The notes under the pieces: generated by a model
What the model saw: only the letters and a program-made list of their open reading frames with translations
Database searches by the model: none
What the model was told of the DNA's origin: nothing
Position numbers and translations under genes: made by a program
Shown: piece after piece, positions 21,853 through 56,160 of the stretch
Numbering within the stretch: position 1 is the first letter of the stretch
Layout: the number at the start of each line of letters is the position of its first letter
Assembly: GCA_943787705.1 (NCBI GenBank)
Contig: CALSNL010000003.1
Coordinates: forward strand, 18,314 to 82,313
DNA length: 64,000 nt
Direction: 5' to 3'
Source of the DNA: an uncultured Pseudomonadales bacterium
GTDB lineage: Bacteria; Pseudomonadota; Gammaproteobacteria; Pseudomonadales; UBA7434

Positions 21853-23460
21853 ATGCAAAGCGTATCAACTGGCCAAGCCCTCTACCGTAACTTTTTGGGT
21901 GACGCCCCTTGCTGGTATAAAAATACGATTATCTTTTTCTTAATCGCCAACCCTTTCTTATTAAATATCACCGGTCCATTCGTAATGGGCTGGTTATTAA
22001 TAATACAGTTTATTTTCACCCTTGCGATGGCACTGAAGTGCTACCCATTGCAAAGTGGTGGCTTACTGGCCATGGAAGCGATTATTCTCGGCATGGCTAG
22101 CCCGCAAGATGTTTACCATGAAATACAACTCAACCTGCCTGTCATTTTACTATTAGTGTTTATGGTGGCCGGCATTTATTTTATGAAGGACTTACTGCTC
22201 TTCACCTTTACCAAACTATTAACCAATGTGCGCTCTAAAGTCTGGCTATCTCTTTTGTTTAGCTTTGTTGCCGCATTTTTATCGGCGTTCTTAGATGCCT
22301 TAACCGTTATTGCCGTCATCATTAGTGTTGCCGTTGGCTTCTATGCCATATTCCAAAAAGTCGCCTCAATAGAAGGCTACGATGAAAATGAAGATGACGA
22401 TGATAAGCATGAAGACAGCAACATCCATCACCTCCACCGTGAAGATCTCGATCAATTCCGTGGCTTTTTACGTGATTTAATGATGCATGGCGCCATTGGT
22501 ACCGCGCTAGGCGGCGTATGTACACAAGTAGGCGAACCTCAAAATTTGGTTATCGCTGCGCAATCTAACTGGCAGTTTCTTGAGTTTTTCTTACGCATGT
22601 GCCCGGTTACTATTCCTGTATTAATAGCCGGTTTATGCGTAGTGGTATTACTCGAAAAAACCGCTTGGTTTGGTTATGGCTGGCAGCTTCCAGAATCCGT
22701 TCGTAAAGTGTTAGTTGAAGATGCCGAACAACAAGATGCCAATCGTAATCATCAAGACAAGATGGCTTTAGTTATTCAAGCCTTAGTCGCTGTTTGGTTA
22801 ATCCTTGGCTTGGCACTGCATTTAGCCGAAGTTGGCGTAATTGGTTTAAGTGTTATCGTATTAGCGACTGCGTTTAATGGCATCACGAGCGAGCATGCAC
22901 TTGGTAAGGCCTTTGAAGAAGCATTGCCCTTTACCGCATTACTTGTCGTGTTCTTCGCTATTGTTGCTGTTATCGACAAACAAGGCTTGTTCACCGGCAT
23001 TATCAATAATGTCTTAGCCATGGATAAAGATGTGCAAGTCCCCATGTTTTACTTAGCCAATGGCGTATTGTCGGCCATTAGCGATAATGTATTTGTAGGT
23101 ACGGTTTATATTACCGAACTCAAACAAGCGTTAATTGACGGCACAATTGATAGATCACAATACGATTTACTTGCAGTAGCCATTAATACCGGCACCAACA
23201 TCCCGTCTGTTGCCACACCTAATGGCCAAGCCGCATTTTTATTCTTGCTGACATCATCACTAGCGCCGCTGATTCGTTTAGGCTATGGCACTATGGCTTA
23301 TAAAGCTCTGCCTTACACCATTGTATTAACGATAGTAGGCTTACTCAGCGTTATCTATATATTGCCGGGCGCCACAGACTATATGGTTGCAGAAGGCATT
23401 ATTACGAATTTACATACCAACGAGGTGTATATTGAGACGAATAACTCAGGGCATCATTAA
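21853..23460 (+). CDS. nhaB: Na+/H+ antiporter NhaB
   Basis: '[11 protein letters not shown]', '[12 protein letters not shown]', '[17 protein letters not shown]' and '[25 protein letters not shown]'. Confidence 0.95.
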
Positions 23461-23492
23461 AAATAATAATTTAATCTGCAGCTAATTTTATT

Positions 23493-24365
23493 GTGAAAAC
23501 ATTTATCGTGACATGGCTATTAAGAGTAGTCGCCCTCCTACCCCTATCGGTTGCTCGGACAATCGGTAGAGGAATTGCTTATTTATTATCGTTGACTAAC
23601 AATGATATTTATCGGCTAAGCCGCATCAACATTGCGTTAACACATCCACAACTGGACAGTGATGCTCTTGATAAAATAACAAAAGACAGTGTTGCGAGTA
23701 CCGTTGTTAATGCTTTTGAAATGCCCATTGTCTGGCAGCAAGATAACGACTGGATTGTCAAGAAAACGGTATCTATTGAAGGTGAAGCCCACCTAACTTC
23801 AGCCCTTGGCAGCAAAAAAGGTGTCATTATTATTGCGCCACATATAGGCAACTGGGAAGCACTTGGAAGACATTTGCCTGTGCATGCACCCACAACTAAC
23901 CTTTACCAGCCACCCAAGCTTACAGCGCTAGAGAATATCGTTAGATCTGGTCGAGAGCGTTCGGGTGCCAAACTTGTGCCGACGAATCAACGGGGTGTTG
24001 CTGCTTTATTAAAAGCGCTAAGACGAGGCGAGTTAATTGGTGTTTTGCCCGATCAGGTGCCGCCTAAAAACTCTGGTGTGTTCGCCCCCTTCTATAACGT
24101 GCCTGCTTATACGATGACGTTGGTTTATAGTTTGATTCAAAAAACCGACTGTCGTGTGGTGTTGGGTTCTGCGTTACGTGTTCCTGGTGGTTTTAAAGTG
24201 ATTTATGCTGAGGCGCCTGAGGCTATTTACAGTGCGGATCAGGCGGTGTCTTTAAGGGCGTTGAATTTGATGGTTGAGATGGCTATTAATAATGATGTGG
24301 CACAATATCAATGGGCTTATAAGCGGTTTAAGAAACAGCCTGAGGGTGTTGAGAAGCCTTATTGA
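23493..24365 (+). CDS. Lipid A / lysophospholipid acyltransferase (LpxL/HtrB family)
   Basis: 'APHIGNWE', 'LPDQVP', 'APFY' and 'QYQWAYKRFK'. Confidence 0.88.
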   Translation: MKTFIVTWLLRVVALLPLSVARTIGRGIAYLLSLTNNDIYRLSRINIALTHPQLDSDALDKITKDSVASTVVNAFEMPIVWQQDNDWIVKKTVSIEGEAHLTSALGSKKGVIIIAPHIGNWEALGRHLPVHAPTTNLYQPPKLTALENIVRSGRERSGAKLVPTNQRGVAALLKALRRGELIGVLPDQVPPKNSGVFAPFYNVPAYTMTLVYSLIQKTDCRVVLGSALRVPGGFKVIYAEAPEAIYSADQAVSLRALNLMVEMAINNDVAQYQWAYKRFKKQPEGVEKPY

Positions 24366-24426
24366 TTTGAGGATGAGCCGTTAGTATTTAGTGGTGATGG
24401 TGCATTCCGAGGGTTTGCTTTTTTTG

Positions 24427-25716
24427 TTTGAGTTTTAAGGTCAAAGTCGTCGGGGGTGGCCCGACAGCCAGTAACTTTTTGTATTCGCTTCGCTCACCCT
24501 ACGGGGCGCCCTTCAGGCGCAGCGCAAACTACGCTGTGCAACACAAAAAAAGTAACCAAAAATGCCGCAACCTTAACGGCGAAGCTTGACCACGACGGGT
24601 GCATCTCGCAGTGTTTTCTGTCCAGCAGTTCCAGAGAGATTATCGCCAAGCGGTATAGGGGGTAATTTTTTCAAACTATAACAGTCACGTTACATTCTGA
24701 TGTTTCGCTTTTCTTTTTAAGTTTTAAATTCAAGACCGTCGGGGGTGGCCCGACAGCCAGTCACTTTTTGTCTACAGCAACAAAAAGTAACCAAAAAATG
24801 CCGTAAGCTTAACGGCGAAGCTTAACCACGACGGGTGCATCTCGTAGGGTTTTCTGTCCAGCAGTTCCAGAGAGATTATCGCCAAGCGGTATAGGGGGTA
24901 ATTTTTTAAACTATAACAGTCACGTTATATTCTGATGTTTTGCTTTTCTTTTTAAGTTTTAAATTCAAGGTCGTCGGGGGTGGCCCGACAGCCAGTCACT
25001 TTTTGTCTACAGCAACAAAAAGTAACCAAAAAATGCCGTAAGCTTAACGGCGAAGCTTAACCACGACGGGTGCATCTCGTAGGGTTTTCTGTCCAGCAGT
25101 TCCAGAGAGATTATCGCCAAGCGGTATAGGGGGTACTTTTTTTGTGCTGCACTTGACATCAAGCTTTACGTCTAAGTTTACCTTTTAGCGAAATAGTAGT
25201 TCTACTAGTTATAAGCCTTTGTTTAGCTCTCACTCTTTCACCTTCTATCCCACACTACGCTCAATAATTCTTTTGAGTAAAAGATTATTCTTTTGAGCTG
25301 CTGCTCTTCATTGCTCTTTTTTCTCTGCTCGGCTCTTCTCTTATCTTTTTTGAGCGGCATGCGGAGCTCAATAGTAAAAGCCGGCCGTTAGGCACGGTTT
25401 TTACTTGTTCTAAAATAAAAAGAAGTCTACTGAACTTGTTCGTTGTAGCCTCATTGTGTTTTGAAAAGTCTGAGGAATCAGAATGATATTGGCTGGAGGC
25501 GAGCTCAGATATTGACGAACAACTAAGTCGAGTGAAAAACGTTTTCGTAGGCGCTGCTAAGGTGTACTGGATAAGACTACCCCAAAGCGAATAGGTTATA
25601 TCGGGGTCAATCTTCGTCAGATTGTGTGCTTTCTTTTGGTTACTTTTCTTTGCACAAGCAAAGAAAAGTGACTGGCGTGTCGGGCCACCCCCGACGGTCC
25701 TGATTGAAAACTCAAA
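24427..25716. mobile_element. Composite non-coding repeat element, copy 1 (three tandem units + conserved core + inverted end). Probable non-autonomous MITE/REPIN-like element.
   Basis: Units at 24441-24664, 24730-24900 and 24965-25135. Inverted terminal copy at 25628-25716. Near-identical second copy at 44459-45847. Mobility is inferred only from the dispersed duplication. Confidence 0.7.
24441..25135. repeat. Tandem array of three ~170-bp structured units separated by homologous ~65-bp AT-rich leaders (period 235 bp without the insert)
   Basis: Unit: TCAAG..CGTCGGGGGTGGCCCGACAGCCAGTCACTTTTTGT...ACAAAAAGTAACC...GCCAAGCGGTATAGGGGGTA. Confidence 0.97.
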
Positions 25717-25765
25717 AAAAATCAAAATCTCAAAGAAGGAAAAAAACTATATATAATACAAAACC

Positions 25766-25786
25766 CTTAAGCGCTAAACGCTTAAG
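25766..25786. terminator. Hairpin just downstream of the dnaQ stop, possible terminator
   Basis: CTTAAGCG-ctaaa-CGCTTAAG perfect 8-bp stem, followed by GGTTTT on the minus strand. Confidence 0.4.
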
Positions 25787-25788
25787 CA

Positions 25789-26520
25789 TTAAGCCTCATC
25801 CTCCTCCTTTAACCAAAGACACTCCCCGCCACTCTTCTTATTAATCGTCGCCAACAACGCCTCATGCGCCGCCAACTCATCAGCATTCGCCGCAATCACT
25901 CGCAAATTCTGACTACCATCCAAACGAATAATCCCCGTCTGAGCTTTTGCACTTTCCGAACCCGACTCAGCCTCGCCCCCTAAATACAAAGAAGTCTGAC
26001 CACCCGTCATCATCAGATAAACGTCAGCTAAAATCTCAGCATCTAATAATGCACCATGCAACTCTCGCTTAGCATTATCAACCGCATAACGCTTACAAAG
26101 CGCATCAAGATTATTTTTTTGACCCGGATGCTTTTTCCGCGCTAAAACTAAACTGTCTATCACACCACAAATACTACTGGTTTTTTTAACCTTACTGCCC
26201 GCTAACTTTAACTCGTGATCAATAAAACCAATATCAAACGGCGCGTTATGAATAATTAATTCCGCACCATCAATGAAATCTAAAAACGCCTCCATCACAT
26301 TTGCAAATAAAGGCTTATCCGATAAAAACTCATTGCTAATGCCGTGAACTTCTAAAGCGCCTTGATCAATCTCTCGCTCAGGCTGAATATACTGATGATA
26401 GTGCTTGCCCGTTAATCGCCGATTAACTAATTCAACACAGCCAATCTCAATAATTCGATGACCTTGTGACGGCTCTAAACCCGTGGTTTCTGTATCGAGT
26501 ACTATTTGTCGTGTCGCCAT
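25789..26520 (-). CDS. dnaQ: DNA polymerase III epsilon subunit
   Basis: 'RQIVLDTETTGL', 'HNAPFDIGF' and 'HGALLDAEILADVYLMMTGGQ'. Confidence 0.97.
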   Translation of the reverse strand: MATRQIVLDTETTGLEPSQGHRIIEIGCVELVNRRLTGKHYHQYIQPEREIDQGALEVHGISNEFLSDKPLFANVMEAFLDFIDGAELIIHNAPFDIGFIDHELKLAGSKVKKTSSICGVIDSLVLARKKHPGQKNNLDALCKRYAVDNAKRELHGALLDAEILADVYLMMTGGQTSLYLGGEAESGSESAKAQTGIIRLDGSQNLRVIAANADELAAHEALLATINKKSGGECLWLKEEDEA

Positions 26521-26545
26521 TACTGAGTTCTCTTATCCATACTAA

Positions 26546-26974
26546 TTAAATTTTCTCTAAGCCTTCATTCGCTAACTGATCGGCAATTTCATTCTCTGCA
26601 TGACCAGAGTGACCCTTTACCCAGTTCCACTTAATTGTATGACGCTGTGATTGCTCATCAAGCTCACGCCAAAGATCCGCATTCTTAACCGGCTTTTTCG
26701 CCGCCGTTCGCCAACCGTTACGCTTCCAATTACCTATCCACTCAGTAATACCCTTTCGCACATACTGTGAATCGGTAACCAATACAACTTCAGAAGTCGC
26801 CTCTAGTAAGCGTAAACCTTCTATCGCTGCTTGCAGCTCCATGCGGTTGTTAGTAGTTTCACGCTCGCCACCACAGTGACGCGCATCAACACCGTCAATA
26901 CGAATTAATACGCCCCAACCACCTGGGCCAGGGTTCCCTTTGCACGCTCCATCGGTATACAACTCTATTGCCAC
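26546..26974 (-). CDS. rnhA: Ribonuclease HI
   Basis: '[16 protein letters not shown]', 'TTNNRMEL', 'TDSQYV' and '[14 protein letters not shown]'. Confidence 0.97.
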
Positions 26975-43277: not shown

Positions 43278-44450
43278 ATGAGCTTTCACCCTCCTCAACG
43301 CACACTAATGGGCCCCGGCCCTTCTGATGTTAATCCTCGTATTCTTAGCGCACTAGGGCAGCCAACTATTGGCCATTTAGACCCTAGCTTTATACAGCTA
43401 ATGGATGAGATTAAAGACCTACTGCAATATGTGTTTCAAACCAAAAATGAATTAACTTTACCAGTCTCCGCACCAGGCTCGGCTGGCATGGAAACTTGCT
43501 TCGTTAACTTAATTGAAGCGGGCGAAACAGTAATAGTGTGTCAGAACGGCGTGTTTGGTGGGCGCATGAAAGAAAACGTAACGCGCTGCGGTGCGCATGC
43601 CGTAATGGTAGAGGATGAATGGAGTAAAGCCGTTGATCTTGAAAAAGTAACAGCAGCGATTAAAGCTAATCCTAATGCAAAAGCCCTCGCCTTTGTTCAT
43701 GCAGAGACATCAACCGGCGTGCAAAGTGATGCCGCGGCATTGTGTGCATTAGCACGCGATGCCAATATGTTATCCATTGTCGATACGGTAACGGGATTAG
43801 CAGGCATTAATGTTGACGTTGATGGCTGGGGTGCCGATGCAGTTTATTCAGGCACACAGAAATGCCTATCGTGCATTCCTGGCATTTCGCCAGTGACTTT
43901 TAGTGCGCGTGCGATTGACGTTATCACTAACAGAAAGACGCCGGTACAGAGTTGGTTCTTAGATTTGAATTTAGTAATGGGTTACTGGGGCAAAGGTGCT
44001 AAGCGCGCTTACCACCACACTGCGCCGGTTAATTCGCTTTATGCTCTGCATGAGTCACTGACTATTGTGAAAGAGGAAGGCCTACAGGCGAGCTGGGATA
44101 GACACTTGCATAACCATCTTGCATTACGTGCAGGACTTGAAGCGATGGGTTTATCTTTGATTGTTGATGAGGCTGATCGTTTACCGCAATTGAATTTAGT
44201 GGGTGTGCCTGAGGGTATTGATGAGGCGCAAGTACGAGTGCAGTTGTTGGAGCAGTTTGATCTTGAGATTGGTGCTGGGCTTGGGGCATTGGCGGGTAAG
44301 GTTTGGCGGATTGGCTTGATGGGGTATGGGTCTAATTCTACGAATGTTAGGCTTTGCTTGAGTGCGTTGGAGACTTGTTTGATTTCGCAGGGACATGGGA
44401 TTACGGGTGGGGATGCGGTTGCGGCGGCTAATCGGGTTTATGCTGGTTAG
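43278..44450 (+). CDS. Alanine-glyoxylate / serine-pyruvate aminotransferase (class V PLP enzyme)
   Basis: 'RTLMGPGPS', 'VHAETSTGV', PLP lysine in 'SGTQKCL', 'YHHTAP' and 'WRIGLMG'. Confidence 0.92.
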   Translation: MSFHPPQRTLMGPGPSDVNPRILSALGQPTIGHLDPSFIQLMDEIKDLLQYVFQTKNELTLPVSAPGSAGMETCFVNLIEAGETVIVCQNGVFGGRMKENVTRCGAHAVMVEDEWSKAVDLEKVTAAIKANPNAKALAFVHAETSTGVQSDAAALCALARDANMLSIVDTVTGLAGINVDVDGWGADAVYSGTQKCLSCIPGISPVTFSARAIDVITNRKTPVQSWFLDLNLVMGYWGKGAKRAYHHTAPVNSLYALHESLTIVKEEGLQASWDRHLHNHLALRAGLEAMGLSLIVDEADRLPQLNLVGVPEGIDEAQVRVQLLEQFDLEIGAGLGALAGKVWRIGLMGYGSNSTNVRLCLSALETCLISQGHGITGGDAVAAANRVYAG

Positions 44451-44458
44451 GTTTAGGG

Positions 44459-45847
44459 CTTTTAGCTTTATCTGATAGTATTCTTATATTCTGGTTTTTT
44501 GCTTATTTTTTTAAGTTTTAAATTCAAGACCGTCGGGGGTGGCCCGACATGCCAGTCACTTTTTTTATTCGCTTCGCTCACCCTACGGGGCGCCCTTCAG
44601 GCGCAGCGCAAACTACGCTGTGCTACAGCAAAAAAAAGTCACCAAAAAATGCCGTAAGCTTAACGGCGAAGCTTAACCACGACGGGTGCATCTCGCAGTG
44701 TTTTCTGTCCAGCAGTTTCAGAGGGTTTATCGCCAAGCGGTATAGAGGAAATTCAAGGTCGTCGGGGGTGGCCCGACATGCCAGTCACTTTTTGTATTCG
44801 CTTCGCTCACCCTACGGGGCGCCCTTCAGGCGCAGCGCAAACTACGCTGTGCAACAGCAAAAAAAGTAACCAAAAATGCCGTAAGCTTAACGGCGAAGCT
44901 TAACCACGACGGGTGCATCTCGTAGGGTTTTCTGTCCAGCAGTTTCAGAGAGATTATCGCCAAGCGGTATAGGGGGTACTTTTTTAAACTTTAAGAGTAA
45001 TGTTGTATTCTGGATGTTTGCTTCTGTTTTTTAAGTTTTAAATTCAAGATCGTCGGGGGTGGCCCGACAGCCAGTCACTTTTTGTCTACAGCAACAAAAA
45101 GTAACCAAAAAATGCCGTAAGCTTAACGGCGAAGCTTAACCACGACGGGTGCATCTCGTAGGGTTTTCTGTCCAGCAGTTCCAGAGAGATTATCGCCAAG
45201 CGGTATAGGGGGTACTTTTTTTGTGCTGCACTTACATCAAGCTTTACGTCTAAGTTTATCCTTTCAGCGAAATAATAGTTCTACTAGTTATAAGCCTTTG
45301 TTTAGCTCTCACTCTTTCACTTTCTAACCCACACTACGCTCAATAATTTTTTAGAGTAAAAGATTATTCTTTTGAGCTGCTGCTCTTCATTGCTCTTTTT
45401 TCTCTGCTCGGTTCTTCTATTATCTTTTTTGAGCGGCATGCGGAGCTCAATAGTAAAAGCCGGCCGTTAGGCACGGTTTTTACTTGTTCTAAAATAAAAA
45501 GAAGTCTACTGAACTTGTTCGTTGTAGCCTCATTGTGTTTTGAAAAGTCTGCGGAATCAGAATGATATTGGCTGGAGGCGAGCTCAGATATTGACGAACA
45601 ATTAAGTCGAGTGAAAAACGTTTTCGTAGGCGCTGCTAAGGTGTACTGAATAAAACCACCCCAAAGCGAATAGGTTATATCGGGGTCAATCTTCGTCAGA
45701 TTGTGTGCTTTCTTTTGGTTACTTTTCTTTGCACAAGCAAAGAAAAGTGACTGGCATGTCGGGCCACCCCCGACGGTCTTGATTGAAAACTCAAACAAAT
45801 AAACTAAAAAACCAGAATATAAAAACACTATCAAATAAGGCTTAAAG
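44459..45847. mobile_element. Composite non-coding repeat element, copy 2
   Basis: Units at 44524-44748, 44753-44978 and 45044-45214. Core 45215-45706. Inverted end 45707-45847, whose outer part mirrors the left leader 44459-44523, giving an imperfect TIR of ~140 bp. Confidence 0.7.
44524..45214. repeat. Tandem array of three structured units; units 1 and 2 carry the 56-nt insert
   Basis: Same unit as 24441-25135. Unit 3 differs from copy-1 unit 3 at one position. Confidence 0.97.
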
Positions 45848-45860
45848 ATCTAGACTCTGG

Positions 45861-47036
45861 CTATCGCGCCAAATGCGCCATACAAGCCTCCAACCCATTC
45901 ACCGTCATAGGAAACATATTCCCATCAAAAATATCACTCATCATGCGCGTCGACTGCGCATAATGCCACTCACTCTCAGCAATCGGATTAATCCAAGCAA
46001 AGCGTTGATAACCCGCCAACAAACGCCGCATCCAAACCTCACCCGACTCCTCATTCCAATGCTCAACACTGCCACCATCAGACATAATCTCATAAGGCGA
46101 CATCGCCGCATCACCCACTACAATCACTTTATAATCTTGTGAGTATTTATTCAAAACCTCAACCAACGGCGTAGATTCCTGCCGCCGACGAATATTGTCC
46201 TTCCACACCGATTCATAAATACAATTGTGAAAGTAAAAAAACTCAAGATGCTTAAACTCGGTTCGCACCGCACTGAATAACTGCTGACAAGCCGTTATGT
46301 GATAATCCATCGATCCGCCAATATCAAAAAAGATCAACACCTTCACCGCATTATGCCGCTCAGGAACCATTTTAATATCTAATAGCCCAGCATTTTTTGC
46401 CGTTGAGCTAATGGTGTCGTCTAAATCTAATTGGTCTTCTGCACCTGAACGCGCAAACTTGCGTAAACGCCTTAAAGCTACTTGAATATTACGTGTGCCA
46501 AGGGCTGTGTCGCCGTCTAAATTTTTAAACTCTCGTTTTTCCCAAACCTTTACGCCTTTTTGATGCTTGCCCTCTCCCCCTACACGGATACCTTCGGGAT
46601 GAAAACCGTTATTGCCAAATGGTGAAGTACCGCCTGTGCCTATCCATTTATTACCACCTTGATGGCGTTTTTCTTGCTCGGCTAATCGCTCTTTAAATTG
46701 CTCAATCAATTCTTCTAAACTTTCAAATGATTGCAGCTTATCTAACTCTTCTTGAGTCAGCTCTTTTTGAAAGGCATCGCGTATCCAATCATCCGGAATT
46801 AAGGCCTCAAGCATGCCGTCCATTGATTCAAGACCATTAAAAAAGGCATCAATAGCACGATCAAATTTATCGAAGTGTTTTTCATCTTTAACAAGAATAG
46901 TACGCGACAGGAAATAGAATTTTTCGCGATCGGCAAATACCGTCGACGTCTTTAACGCTTCTAGTAAGTCTAAAAACTCACCTAGCGTAACTGGCACACC
47001 ATAGCGACGAAGCGTTTCGAAATAAGATAGCAACAT
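45861..47036 (-). CDS. vWA domain-containing protein (CoxE-like)
   Basis: 'HQGGNKWIGTGGTSPFG', MIDAS-like 'FDIGGSMD', 'YFHNC' and 'VGDAAMSPYE'. Confidence 0.85.
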   Translation of the reverse strand: MLLSYFETLRRYGVPVTLGEFLDLLEALKTSTVFADREKFYFLSRTILVKDEKHFDKFDRAIDAFFNGLESMDGMLEALIPDDWIRDAFQKELTQEELDKLQSFESLEELIEQFKERLAEQEKRHQGGNKWIGTGGTSPFGNNGFHPEGIRVGGEGKHQKGVKVWEKREFKNLDGDTALGTRNIQVALRRLRKFARSGAEDQLDLDDTISSTAKNAGLLDIKMVPERHNAVKVLIFFDIGGSMDYHITACQQLFSAVRTEFKHLEFFYFHNCIYESVWKDNIRRRQESTPLVEVLNKYSQDYKVIVVGDAAMSPYEIMSDGGSVEHWNEESGEVWMRRLLAGYQRFAWINPIAESEWHYAQSTRMMSDIFDGNMFPMTVNGLEACMAHLAR

Positions 47037-56042: not shown

Positions 56043-56160
56043 TGGTGGTGAACCCCAACCAGCCACACCCCGGCACACGAGTCGATAGCTACCGTTGCTC
56101 CCTTCCAGGCCTGGCGGAATTTACCATCTATCGTTGCGAGGGGACCCATTGAGGCCACCA
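56043..56160 (-). ncRNA. ffs: Signal recognition particle 4.5S RNA
   Basis: Minus strand reads GGGTCCCCTCGCAACG...CCGCCAGGCCTGGAAGGGAGCAACGG...GTGCCGGGGTGTGGCTGGTTGGGGTTC (SRP domain IV with GGAA tetraloop). Closing stem TGGTGG/CCACCA. Located upstream of dnaX. Confidence 0.93.

Follow-up and report, generated by a model that had tools for sequence, protein, structure and literature searches.

A family of modular, hairpin-ended, non-coding intergenic repeats in an uncultured Pseudomonadales bacterium

The 64,000-nucleotide (nt) stretch of DNA analysed here, referred to as the window, comes from contig CALSNL010000003.1 (positions 18,314 to 82,313, forward strand) of assembly GCA_943787705.1, the genome of an uncultured Pseudomonadales bacterium (G000; 2.6 Mb, seven contigs, 97.8% complete). 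It contains two copies of a dispersed, non-coding element with hairpin ends, at 24379–25756 (copy 1, bordered on its right by the terminator hairpin of dnaQ) and 44450–45871 (copy 2). G000:C3:42692 corresponds to window position 24379, and other genomes are referred to by their G numbers. Both loci are best explained as members of an old family of modular intergenic repeats, in which two inverted end modules of conserved hairpin structure enclose a non-coding interior.

Sequence reading combined with a repeat finder bore out the architecture that an earlier, sequence-only reading had proposed for the two loci. Each copy consists of three tandem left units, a core of ~500 bp and, at the right, an inverted copy of the unit's start. 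The left units repeat with a period of 229–291 bp at both loci, and the tandem reiteration of one end, also claimed in that reading, is present. The features of the two copies, in window coordinates, are as follows.

24379–24448, + strand: copy 1, decayed spacer and arm outside the left end, where the repeated block starts (boundary set by self-similarity of the genome).
24449–24658, + strand: copy 1, unit 1, an end module plus segment B, with hairpin 1 at 24449–24465 (hairpin at C3:42762; structure supported by the pair count), an insert at 24481–24540 in hairpin 2, and then hairpin 3.
24659–24893, + strand: copy 1, unit 2, with spacer or "leader" (24659–24722), end module (hairpin 1 at 24738–24754) and segment B; reference copy of repeat-finder family D1.
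24894–25139, + strand: copy 1, unit 3 (innermost), with spacer, end module (hairpin 1 at 24973–24989) and segment B; family D1, 97% identical to unit 2.
25140–25599, + strand: copy 1, non-coding core, long variant, with a terminator-like hairpin with A- and T-runs at 25383–25399.
25600–25716, − strand: copy 1, right end module, with hairpin 3' at 25609–25623, hairpin 2 at ~25641–25672 and hairpin 1 at 25679–25695, then the outer arm (inverted repeats I7 and I9; right hairpin at C3:43992).
25717–25756, + strand: copy 1, right decayed outer spacer, the end of the repeated block; the dnaQ terminator hairpin comes next.
44450–44509, + strand: copy 2, left outer spacer, mirrored at 45796–45871 (inverted repeat I1).
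44510–45218, + strand: copy 2, three left units, with hairpin 1 at 44532, 44761 and 45052 (gaps of 229 and 291).
45219–45678, + strand: copy 2, non-coding core, long variant (97% identity to copy 1).
45679–45871, − strand: copy 2, right end module (hairpin 1 at 45758–45774) and one outer spacer reaching the neighbouring gene (inverted repeats I1 and I5).

The inverted right end carries the hairpin GTCGGG-ggtgg-CCCGAC and a second, A/T-rich hairpin, ACTTTT...AAAAGT. It also has a third hairpin of its own, AATCT..AGATT at 25609–25623, so that the functional inverted ends are ~110 nt on both sides. At copy 2 the inversion extends further outward, as had been claimed, with arms at 44451–44566 and 45740–45855 that are 82% complementary over 116 nt. 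The two copies were said to differ at about 17 positions in core and right end, and their alignment has 15 mismatches and 2 gaps in 578 columns. A 60-nt GC-rich insert occupies the loop of hairpin 2 in unit 1 of copy 1 and in units 1 and 2 of copy 2 (24481–24540, 44565–44624 and 44794–44853). The AT-rich leader that had been assigned to every unit is missing at the copy 2 unit 1/2 junction; where it lies between units, it and the spacer outside the right end form one sequence family, in inverted orientation.

The window loci are two of many. Using core plus right end as the query, we obtained ~30 full-length and ~11 internally deleted matches in G000, and a module map resolved 60 clusters, 57 of them core-bearing and dispersed over five contigs. 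The family is thus not the product of one segmental duplication, and the three-unit form from which the sequence-only reading started is a rare extreme (3 of 57 loci): 31 loci have one left unit and 21 have two, with one double element and one partial copy making up the rest. The repeated blocks measure 477–2009 bp and total 61,442 bp, or 2.4% of G000. The 17-nt hairpin occurs 147 times exactly and 165 times with up to two substitutions, and the hairpin's 16-mer, with 147 occurrences, is the commonest 16-mer in the genome, an abundance that excludes a chance origin of the repeat. Because 55 of the 58 hairpin arrays contain the core and only 3 do not, the hairpin is not a free-standing REP (repetitive extragenic palindrome). 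The inverted ends lie 570–820 nt apart and enclose segment B and the core. The core is of the long variant at 29 loci and of the short variant at 28, and a 139-nt core segment (25207–25345 in copy 1) is missing in 28 of the 57 copies. At least one 60-nt insert is present at 33 of the 57 loci, in the loop of hairpin 2 at either end, and none was found away from the element in G000. An insert-like motif (CCCATAGGGTGAG...) also adjoins end modules in G003. Two-copy blocks of G000 were set aside as EF-Tu, PstB/PhoU, a TonB receptor and unnamed open reading frames (ORFs).

Across 54 aligned copies, column identity is 90–100% within the conserved unit, which runs from AGTTTTAA(A/G)TTCAAGGTC-hairpin to hairpin-GACCTTGAACTTAAAACT, and 64–76% in the outer spacers. 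The terminal inverted repeats are highly conserved over ~50 nt and reach 116 nt at locus 2. Outside each end lie zero to two extra hairpin-plus-spacer modules of ~106 bp, inverted left versus right, whose decay grows with distance outward; the outer junctions are ragged and have no sharp terminus. As had been noted for the first two loci, no target-site duplication was seen, here at the left and right junctions of all 57, which are old and decayed enough to make this weak evidence. Microsatellite-like expansions of the hexamer GTTCAA and the heptamer AGTTTTA occur in the arm just outside hairpin 1 (e.g., C6:32440–33170, C1:283095–284350 and C2:66522–67442), and a solo hairpin in G020 is flanked by (AAGGTC)n.

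The end module of ~110 nt comprises four helices, hp1a, hp1b (which overlaps hp1a), hp2 and hp3. We aligned 23 modules from eight genomes, all pairwise less than 90% identical. In this alignment 92.3% of cells can pair, compared to 81.0% in shuffles, and 14 of the 28 pairs have changed on both sides, with compensatory changes in all four helices. The covariation score of 0.264 was not reached by any of 500 shuffles (0.081) and compares to 0.055 or less when the partners are slid, values to be read with the caveats that the structure was derived from the same sequences and that the sequences are related. The pairing of the end module is kept by compensatory changes across the genus.

The interior gave a different picture. 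Its only long open frame, a 146-aa frame on the minus strand, is open in about half of the copies and shows no codon periodicity (diversity of 0.096, 0.092 and 0.076 at codon positions 1, 2 and 3); it was rejected as a gene, in support of the view of a dispersed, non-coding, non-autonomous element with hairpin ends. In a search of the window against Rfam 15, the sole match at gathering score was a signal recognition particle (SRP) RNA outside the element (bacterial small SRP RNA, RF00169, 64.3 bits, 56054–56150, − strand); the element itself gave four matches at E ≤ 10, all far below gathering, and hence no family match. The "structured core" of the sequence-only reading is weakly supported: relative to 20 shuffles per strand, the + strand of segment B plus core folds at chance level (z = −0.81) and its − strand moderately better than chance (z = −3.37). 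A consensus fold of the interior has no covariation signal (covariance term of ~1 kcal/mol), and column-shuffle z-scores of −22 and −18 were discarded as inflated by gaps and a crude control. The core hairpin is preceded by an A-run and followed by a T-run, and G019 keeps a hairpin there with a different stem sequence. Read data covering window positions 23400–26600 were available from X1, X17 and X18 (RNA-labelled) and X4 (DNA), all in the form of contigs. The element-to-flank depth ratio is of the same order in X1 and X4 and, being contig-based, does not separate transcription from DNA signal. No joint skipping the whole element is listed among these contigs over that range; joints skipping units or a 141-nt core segment are listed, and may stem from paralogous copies.

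Relatives carry the family as well. Diverged whole-element homologues are present in the congeners G019 (inverted ends of ~125 nt), G006 and G002, and end modules alone in G003, G011 and G039. With a covariance model of the end module, it was found in 5 of 150 other genomes of the order and, in a sample of the class, in 8 of 150 other families. G077 has this end architecture around an unrelated interior of ~470 nt, and the whole-element homologues in G019, G006, G002 and G077 have differing interiors; judged by these sequence comparisons, the interiors are lineage-specific and it is the ends that are conserved. One Aeromonas and one Burkholderia replicon also contain hairpin 2, with the motif CTTTTCTTTG...CAAAGAAAAG. 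In Burkholderia cenocepacia NZ_CP091014.1 (L185:2533–2645), the Rfam small RNA (sRNA) family RF02421 (Bp1_Cand684_SIPHT, 92.9 bits) starts inside the 3' arm of the hp2-like hairpin, and this "sRNA" family may be part of a related repeat; its candidate is listed as validated by reverse-transcription PCR (RT-PCR) in the available part of PMC3521395. No resemblance to plasmid- or phage-borne elements was found beyond a 45-nt hairpin. The main texts searched yielded no published description of the element or its motifs, and matches to the 11-nt motifs were primers in unrelated papers, which, together with the occurrence in several families, supports the earlier suspicion that the end motif is widespread and under-described. 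The assemblies of the close relatives carry marine Cellvibrionales or Pseudomonadales labels, and their matches sit at contig ends, the repeat breaking these assemblies. In G148 (L206:777–5535), ~260-nt end modules occupy three intergenic regions in a row, alternate in orientation and surround genes for the hipA toxin-kinase and a MotY/OmpA-family protein.

Comparison of sites between species indicates how long the copies have been in place. Of 59 mappable, hairpin-adjacent unique flanks taken from contigs of other species, 50 map no more than 400 bp away from a G000 element and another 3 lie at G000 solo hairpins, with identities of 71–96%. Within G000, identity to the nearest paralog ranges from 88.2 to 98.4% (median 96.4%), and no pair exceeds 98.4%. 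Since sites are shared with relatives and no pair of copies is closer than this, the family looks old, without sign of recent movement, and nearly immobile. Empty sites exist, so that the complete lack of presence/absence variation which would have spoken against the sequence-only reading is not seen: the lpxL–dnaQ site is empty in G020 (64-bp spacer) and G002 (~114-bp spacer) and occupied in G004. Most sites, however, are fixed across species, and present-day mobility is doubtful. The copy-2 site is occupied in G004 and G007 and has a solo hairpin in G020. The insertion point could not be placed from the empty sites, the G020 and G002 spacers being too diverged.

Copies at the same site are not the closest relatives of one another. 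The orthologous-site copy ranked first in only 1 of 10 comparisons; pairs within G000 have a median identity of 93.6%, and cross-species pairs of the longer pieces ~85–91%. The long and short core variants differ at 2 of 7 orthologous sites. In a tree of 320 nt (23 copies from G000, 4 from G007 and 2 from G004), the G004 and G007 copies sit on long branches nested among those of G000, and a short-branch, G000-only cluster exists. That orthologous copies are not closest relatives suggests sequence exchange, and the family has probably undergone partial homogenisation by gene conversion over older subfamilies.

The copies sit at gene 3' ends. According to crude ORF calls of at least 90 aa, both neighbours could be assigned at 48 loci (9 of 57 remained unassigned), and these are convergent at 32, tandem at 15 and divergent at 1; 47 of the 48 adjoin at least one gene 3' end. 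The element itself lies in the plus orientation at 31 loci and in the minus orientation at 26. In the right flank of the copy-2 site in G004 (G004:C191, L137) there is an extra ORF with a glutamine/glycine/lysine-rich repeat, which may resemble the tail of Rpn-type proteins.

With a probability of about 0.55, we interpret both window loci as members of an old, now fossil family of non-autonomous, modular, hairpin-ended intergenic repeats of the MITE (miniature inverted-repeat transposable element), REPIN (REP doublet forming a hairpin) or BIME (bacterial interspersed mosaic element) kind, undescribed as far as our searches reach. A copy consists of two inverted ~110-nt multi-hairpin end modules around a lineage-specific non-coding interior, with the left module and segment B present one to three times. 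The spread of the family would date back to an ancestor shared by G000, G004 and G007, in which a trans-acting enzyme recognised the folded ends and moved the copies; this enzyme would now be lost, decayed or unrecognised, and the copies essentially immobile. Later exchange among copies by gene conversion and unequal recombination would explain why same-site copies are not closest relatives, as well as the core swaps at a site, the varying unit number and the fall in identity outward from the centre. Retention at gene 3' ends may reflect little harm there, or use as putative 3' hairpin or terminator modules.

Several points weigh against this interpretation. No mobilising enzyme has been identified, and past transposition is deduced from dispersal and inverted ends. 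The missing target-site duplication and sharp terminus count against it too, though both are compatible with age and with mechanisms that do not involve a DDE transposase. The neighbour orientations come from crude ORFs, and a role at gene 3' ends is only putative, the contig reads giving no separation of RNA from DNA. The tree covers just 320 nt and six copies from outside G000, and the copies of the relatives are incomplete, since the repeat breaks their assemblies. Finally, the shared sites could reflect repeated site-specific insertion into pre-existing hairpin modules instead of gene conversion, an alternative compatible with the solo hairpin that G020 has at the copy-2 site.

The Pfam model Y1_Tnp has no match in G000, G004, G007 or G002, and canonical Y1 genes are present in 8 of the 21 genomes of the genus; those of the congeners are not flanked by end modules, and one has its own unrelated REP. 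A search with Y2_Tnp was uninformative, its control giving a signal in no genome. The Pfam families DDE_Tnp_1, TnpB zinc ribbon and IS110 have no match in G000. A parent element was not seen either, in that no hairpin pair brackets a gene among all G000 arrays or 64 relatives' loci. Inverted ends 2.0 and 4.4 kb apart in G148 were considered as a gene-bearing parent and rejected, as they enclose hipA and the MotY/OmpA gene. The DDE (rve) genes of G000 belong to only one IS3-family and one IS481-family element (IS, insertion sequence), with ends unrelated to the repeat. An rve match beside a truncated element was likewise dismissed as a parent: it is an IS481-family insertion with its own ends and duplication. 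This insertion (G000:C1:677408–678715; L143:1014–2321) lies inside one repeat copy, cutting off the right end; it encodes an rve transposase of 393 aa, is bounded by TGTACA...TGTACA and is accompanied by a GTGT duplication of 4 bp. The single IS3-family element (G000:C1 ~317050–318210; L142:839–1992) encodes OrfA (98 aa) and OrfB (286 aa).

A divergent, long Y1 gene of the HUH type, which the Pfam scan did not see, lies in a two-copy 1.27-kb unit of G000 (C1:89454–90720 and C3:468825–470092; L107, L209, L215). It matches NCBIfam REP_Tyr_transpos with E = 4.9e-7 (29.7 bits, below the cut-off of 80) and has the HUH motif SNHYHV and the tyrosine motif YVDLNPIRAG. A common frameshift interrupts the two copies in G000, whose amino-acid identity does not exceed their nucleotide identity; intact genes of 304–326 aa are found in G003, G004, G006 and G019, with several copies in G003 and G006. 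The unit ends in short inverted sequences of its own, GGACAGGCAC / GTGCCTGTCC, which bear no relation to hp1 or hp2, and its right-end motif is tandemly reiterated in G000 (five copies of 17 nt, L107:361–470). In G003, a canonical RAYT-like (REP-associated tyrosine transposase) Y1 gene (L149:1158–1954) is bracketed by the palindrome TTAGGGGTCAGAGCCCTAA (a 23-nt inverted repeat, 96% complementary), and an A-type end module of the element family lies ~60 bp away from it.

These observations bear on the rival that survives best, itself unlikely: a REPIN/RAYT-like system in which the folded ends were cut and joined as single strands by a trans-acting Y1 HUH enzyme, with the long Y1 as candidate, and which would have been dead in G000 since the frameshift. 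Compensatory changes in the hairpins are expected under structure-specific recognition, and the long persistence at fixed sites resembles what the available parts of 10.1101/2022.05.22.493013 and 10.1101/2021.07.10.451892 describe for REPIN-RAYT systems. The long Y1 is present in 5 of the 8 element-bearing congeners (G000, G003, G004, G006 and G019) and in 0 of 13 others; the G019 gene is followed, after ~80 nt, by a canonical right end module; the reiteration of its right-end motif echoes the one-end reiteration of the element; and a frameshifted gene would fit a dead system with fossil repeats. Set against this, canonical Y1_Tnp is missing from the four genomes named above, the long-Y1 unit has termini of its own, and 14 of 15 long-Y1 loci have no end module within ~1.5 kb (filters off, E ≤ 1). 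The long Y1 was not found in G007 and G011, both rich in elements (draft genomes), and the ordinary RAYT-like gene of G003 is flanked by a different palindrome. In the class sample, full-length long Y1 genes are present in 19 of 150 families, none of them among the 8 that have the end module; G093 carries just a fragment that contains a stop. RAYT genes are recognised by flanking 16-mers that are highly repeated genome-wide, according to the available part of PMC5581495; the 16-mers flanking the two long Y1 genes of G000 occur at most 5 and 7 times, compared to 147 for the element's hairpin, and these genes do not have flanks of the RAYT kind. The REP/RAYT-like HUH mechanism that the sequence-only reading had favoured is thus not supported by these tests, and survives only as a minority hypothesis by way of the divergent long Y1 gene.

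Slightly less probable is a classical MITE, that is, an internally deleted derivative of a DDE insertion sequence, moved via its terminal inverted repeats and with a parent lost from these genomes. It would account for terminal inverted repeats of 50–116 nt, for dispersed intergenic copies with two deletion variants of the interior and for the lack of coding capacity, and the Porphyromonas MITE with a variable minisatellite, as presented in the available part of PMC4596501, is a precedent for tandem units. It sits poorly with the missing target-site duplication and sharp termini, with the failure to find a gene-carrying element with these ends in G000, in the relatives' loci or in G148, and with the empty DDE_Tnp_1, IS110 and TnpB searches, both rve genes being in IS3 and IS481 elements with unrelated ends. 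Similarity to plasmid or phage elements ends at the 45-nt hairpin, and conservation of pairing rather than of sequence in the ends would be unusual for DDE binding sites.

We give the same low standing to a bolder proposal, in which the ~110-nt end module would be an ancient, structure-defined recognition element common to several families of Gamma- and Betaproteobacteria. It would define a class of mobile elements with hairpin ends that has gone unrecognised and whose members the long Y1 HUH or another enzyme would move in single-stranded form; after the death of the enzyme, the copies would have been inherited vertically, gene-converted, and tolerated or used at gene 3' ends. In size, such a REPIN-like replicator would exceed all described ones tenfold.

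Least likely is an element that serves the host and is kept by selection, either as a 3'-end module (protective hairpins, a bidirectional terminator or nucleoid-protein sites) or as a family of non-coding RNA genes. The placement of 47 of 48 loci at a gene 3' end, 32 of them between convergent genes, invites this idea, yet purifying selection that removes harmful insertions would also lead to an avoidance of promoters. Sites are conserved across species and the end hairpins in structure, whereas G020 and G002 do without the element at the same sites. From the sequence, the inversion of the ends means that a transcript would meet the same hairpin series whichever side it came from, but 0.6–1.4 kb is far above what a terminator needs. 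A host-serving element would also agree with the core hairpin and its A- and T-runs, kept in G019 with a different stem, with the − strand fold (z = −3.37), and with the Burkholderia hp2 motif adjoining RF02421, whose candidate is RT-PCR validated according to the same portion of PMC3521395; it is disfavoured by the lack of an Rfam match, by the + strand fold at chance level, and by interiors that are unrelated between genera and show no covariation.

Small marine bacterial genomes are usually thought to be repeat-poor, and contrary to that expectation a single non-coding family takes up 2.4% of this one. What is new here, as far as our searches reach, is a large modular repeat family with copies fixed at gene 3' ends and with structure-conserved, multi-hairpin end modules that also occur well beyond the genus. 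It is a natural data set for asking how non-autonomous repeats persist at fixed sites when no transposase is present, bears on the share of gene conversion in shaping repeats, and raises the question of what reads, as DNA or as RNA, a hairpin series common to several bacterial families. Annotation of these repeats could draw on the covariance model of the end module, which could also mark probable assembly breaks in metagenome-assembled genomes of the group.

Among known systems, integron attC arrays and CRISPR arrays form clusters next to an integrase or to cas genes and alternate repeats and spacers regularly, whereas the copies are dispersed over five contigs and 57 sites. Derivatives of IS200/IS605 share hairpin-bearing ends, the lack of a target duplication and the presence of a Y1 HUH gene family in the same genomes. 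In IS200/IS605 the two end hairpins are on one strand and do not form inverted repeats; the ends of the element are inverted, the long-Y1 unit has other termini, and TnpB was not found in G000. BOX elements have the layout boxA-boxB(n)-boxC, and BIMEs are composite. With BOX of Streptococcus pneumoniae and the BIMEs of enterobacteria, the element has in common that it is modular, intergenic, variable in unit number and without a known dedicated transposase, as far as these are characterised in the available part of PMC3049150. The BOX elements belong to another phylum, neither BOX nor BIMEs are related in sequence to the element, and their units are much smaller, whereas the element reiterates one end module plus ~100 nt and has an interior of several hundred nt. 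The element is larger than typical MITEs. It differs from them in the lack of a target-site duplication or parent insertion sequence, in ragged termini bordered by decayed extra end modules and in structure-conserved ends, and resembles them, including the minisatellite MITE of Porphyromonas gingivalis (PMC4596501, as cited above), in being non-autonomous, non-coding and intergenic, with terminal inverted repeats and variable tandem units. A REP is a short palindrome or an inverted pair with a short spacer, and the element, with ends 570–820 nt apart, is neither. REPINs span a ~100-nt hairpin, whereas the element measures 0.6–1.4 kb with an interior of 360–500 nt, has ends of three to four hairpins over ~110 nt, and has no canonical RAYT in G000. 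The likeness to REPIN/REP-RAYT systems lies in short GC-rich hairpins in inverted pairs, at high copy number, extragenic and downstream of genes, and extends to history, for REPINs, in the available parts of 10.1101/2022.05.22.493013 and PMC3116915, persist vertically over long times at fixed sites rather than by horizontal spread.

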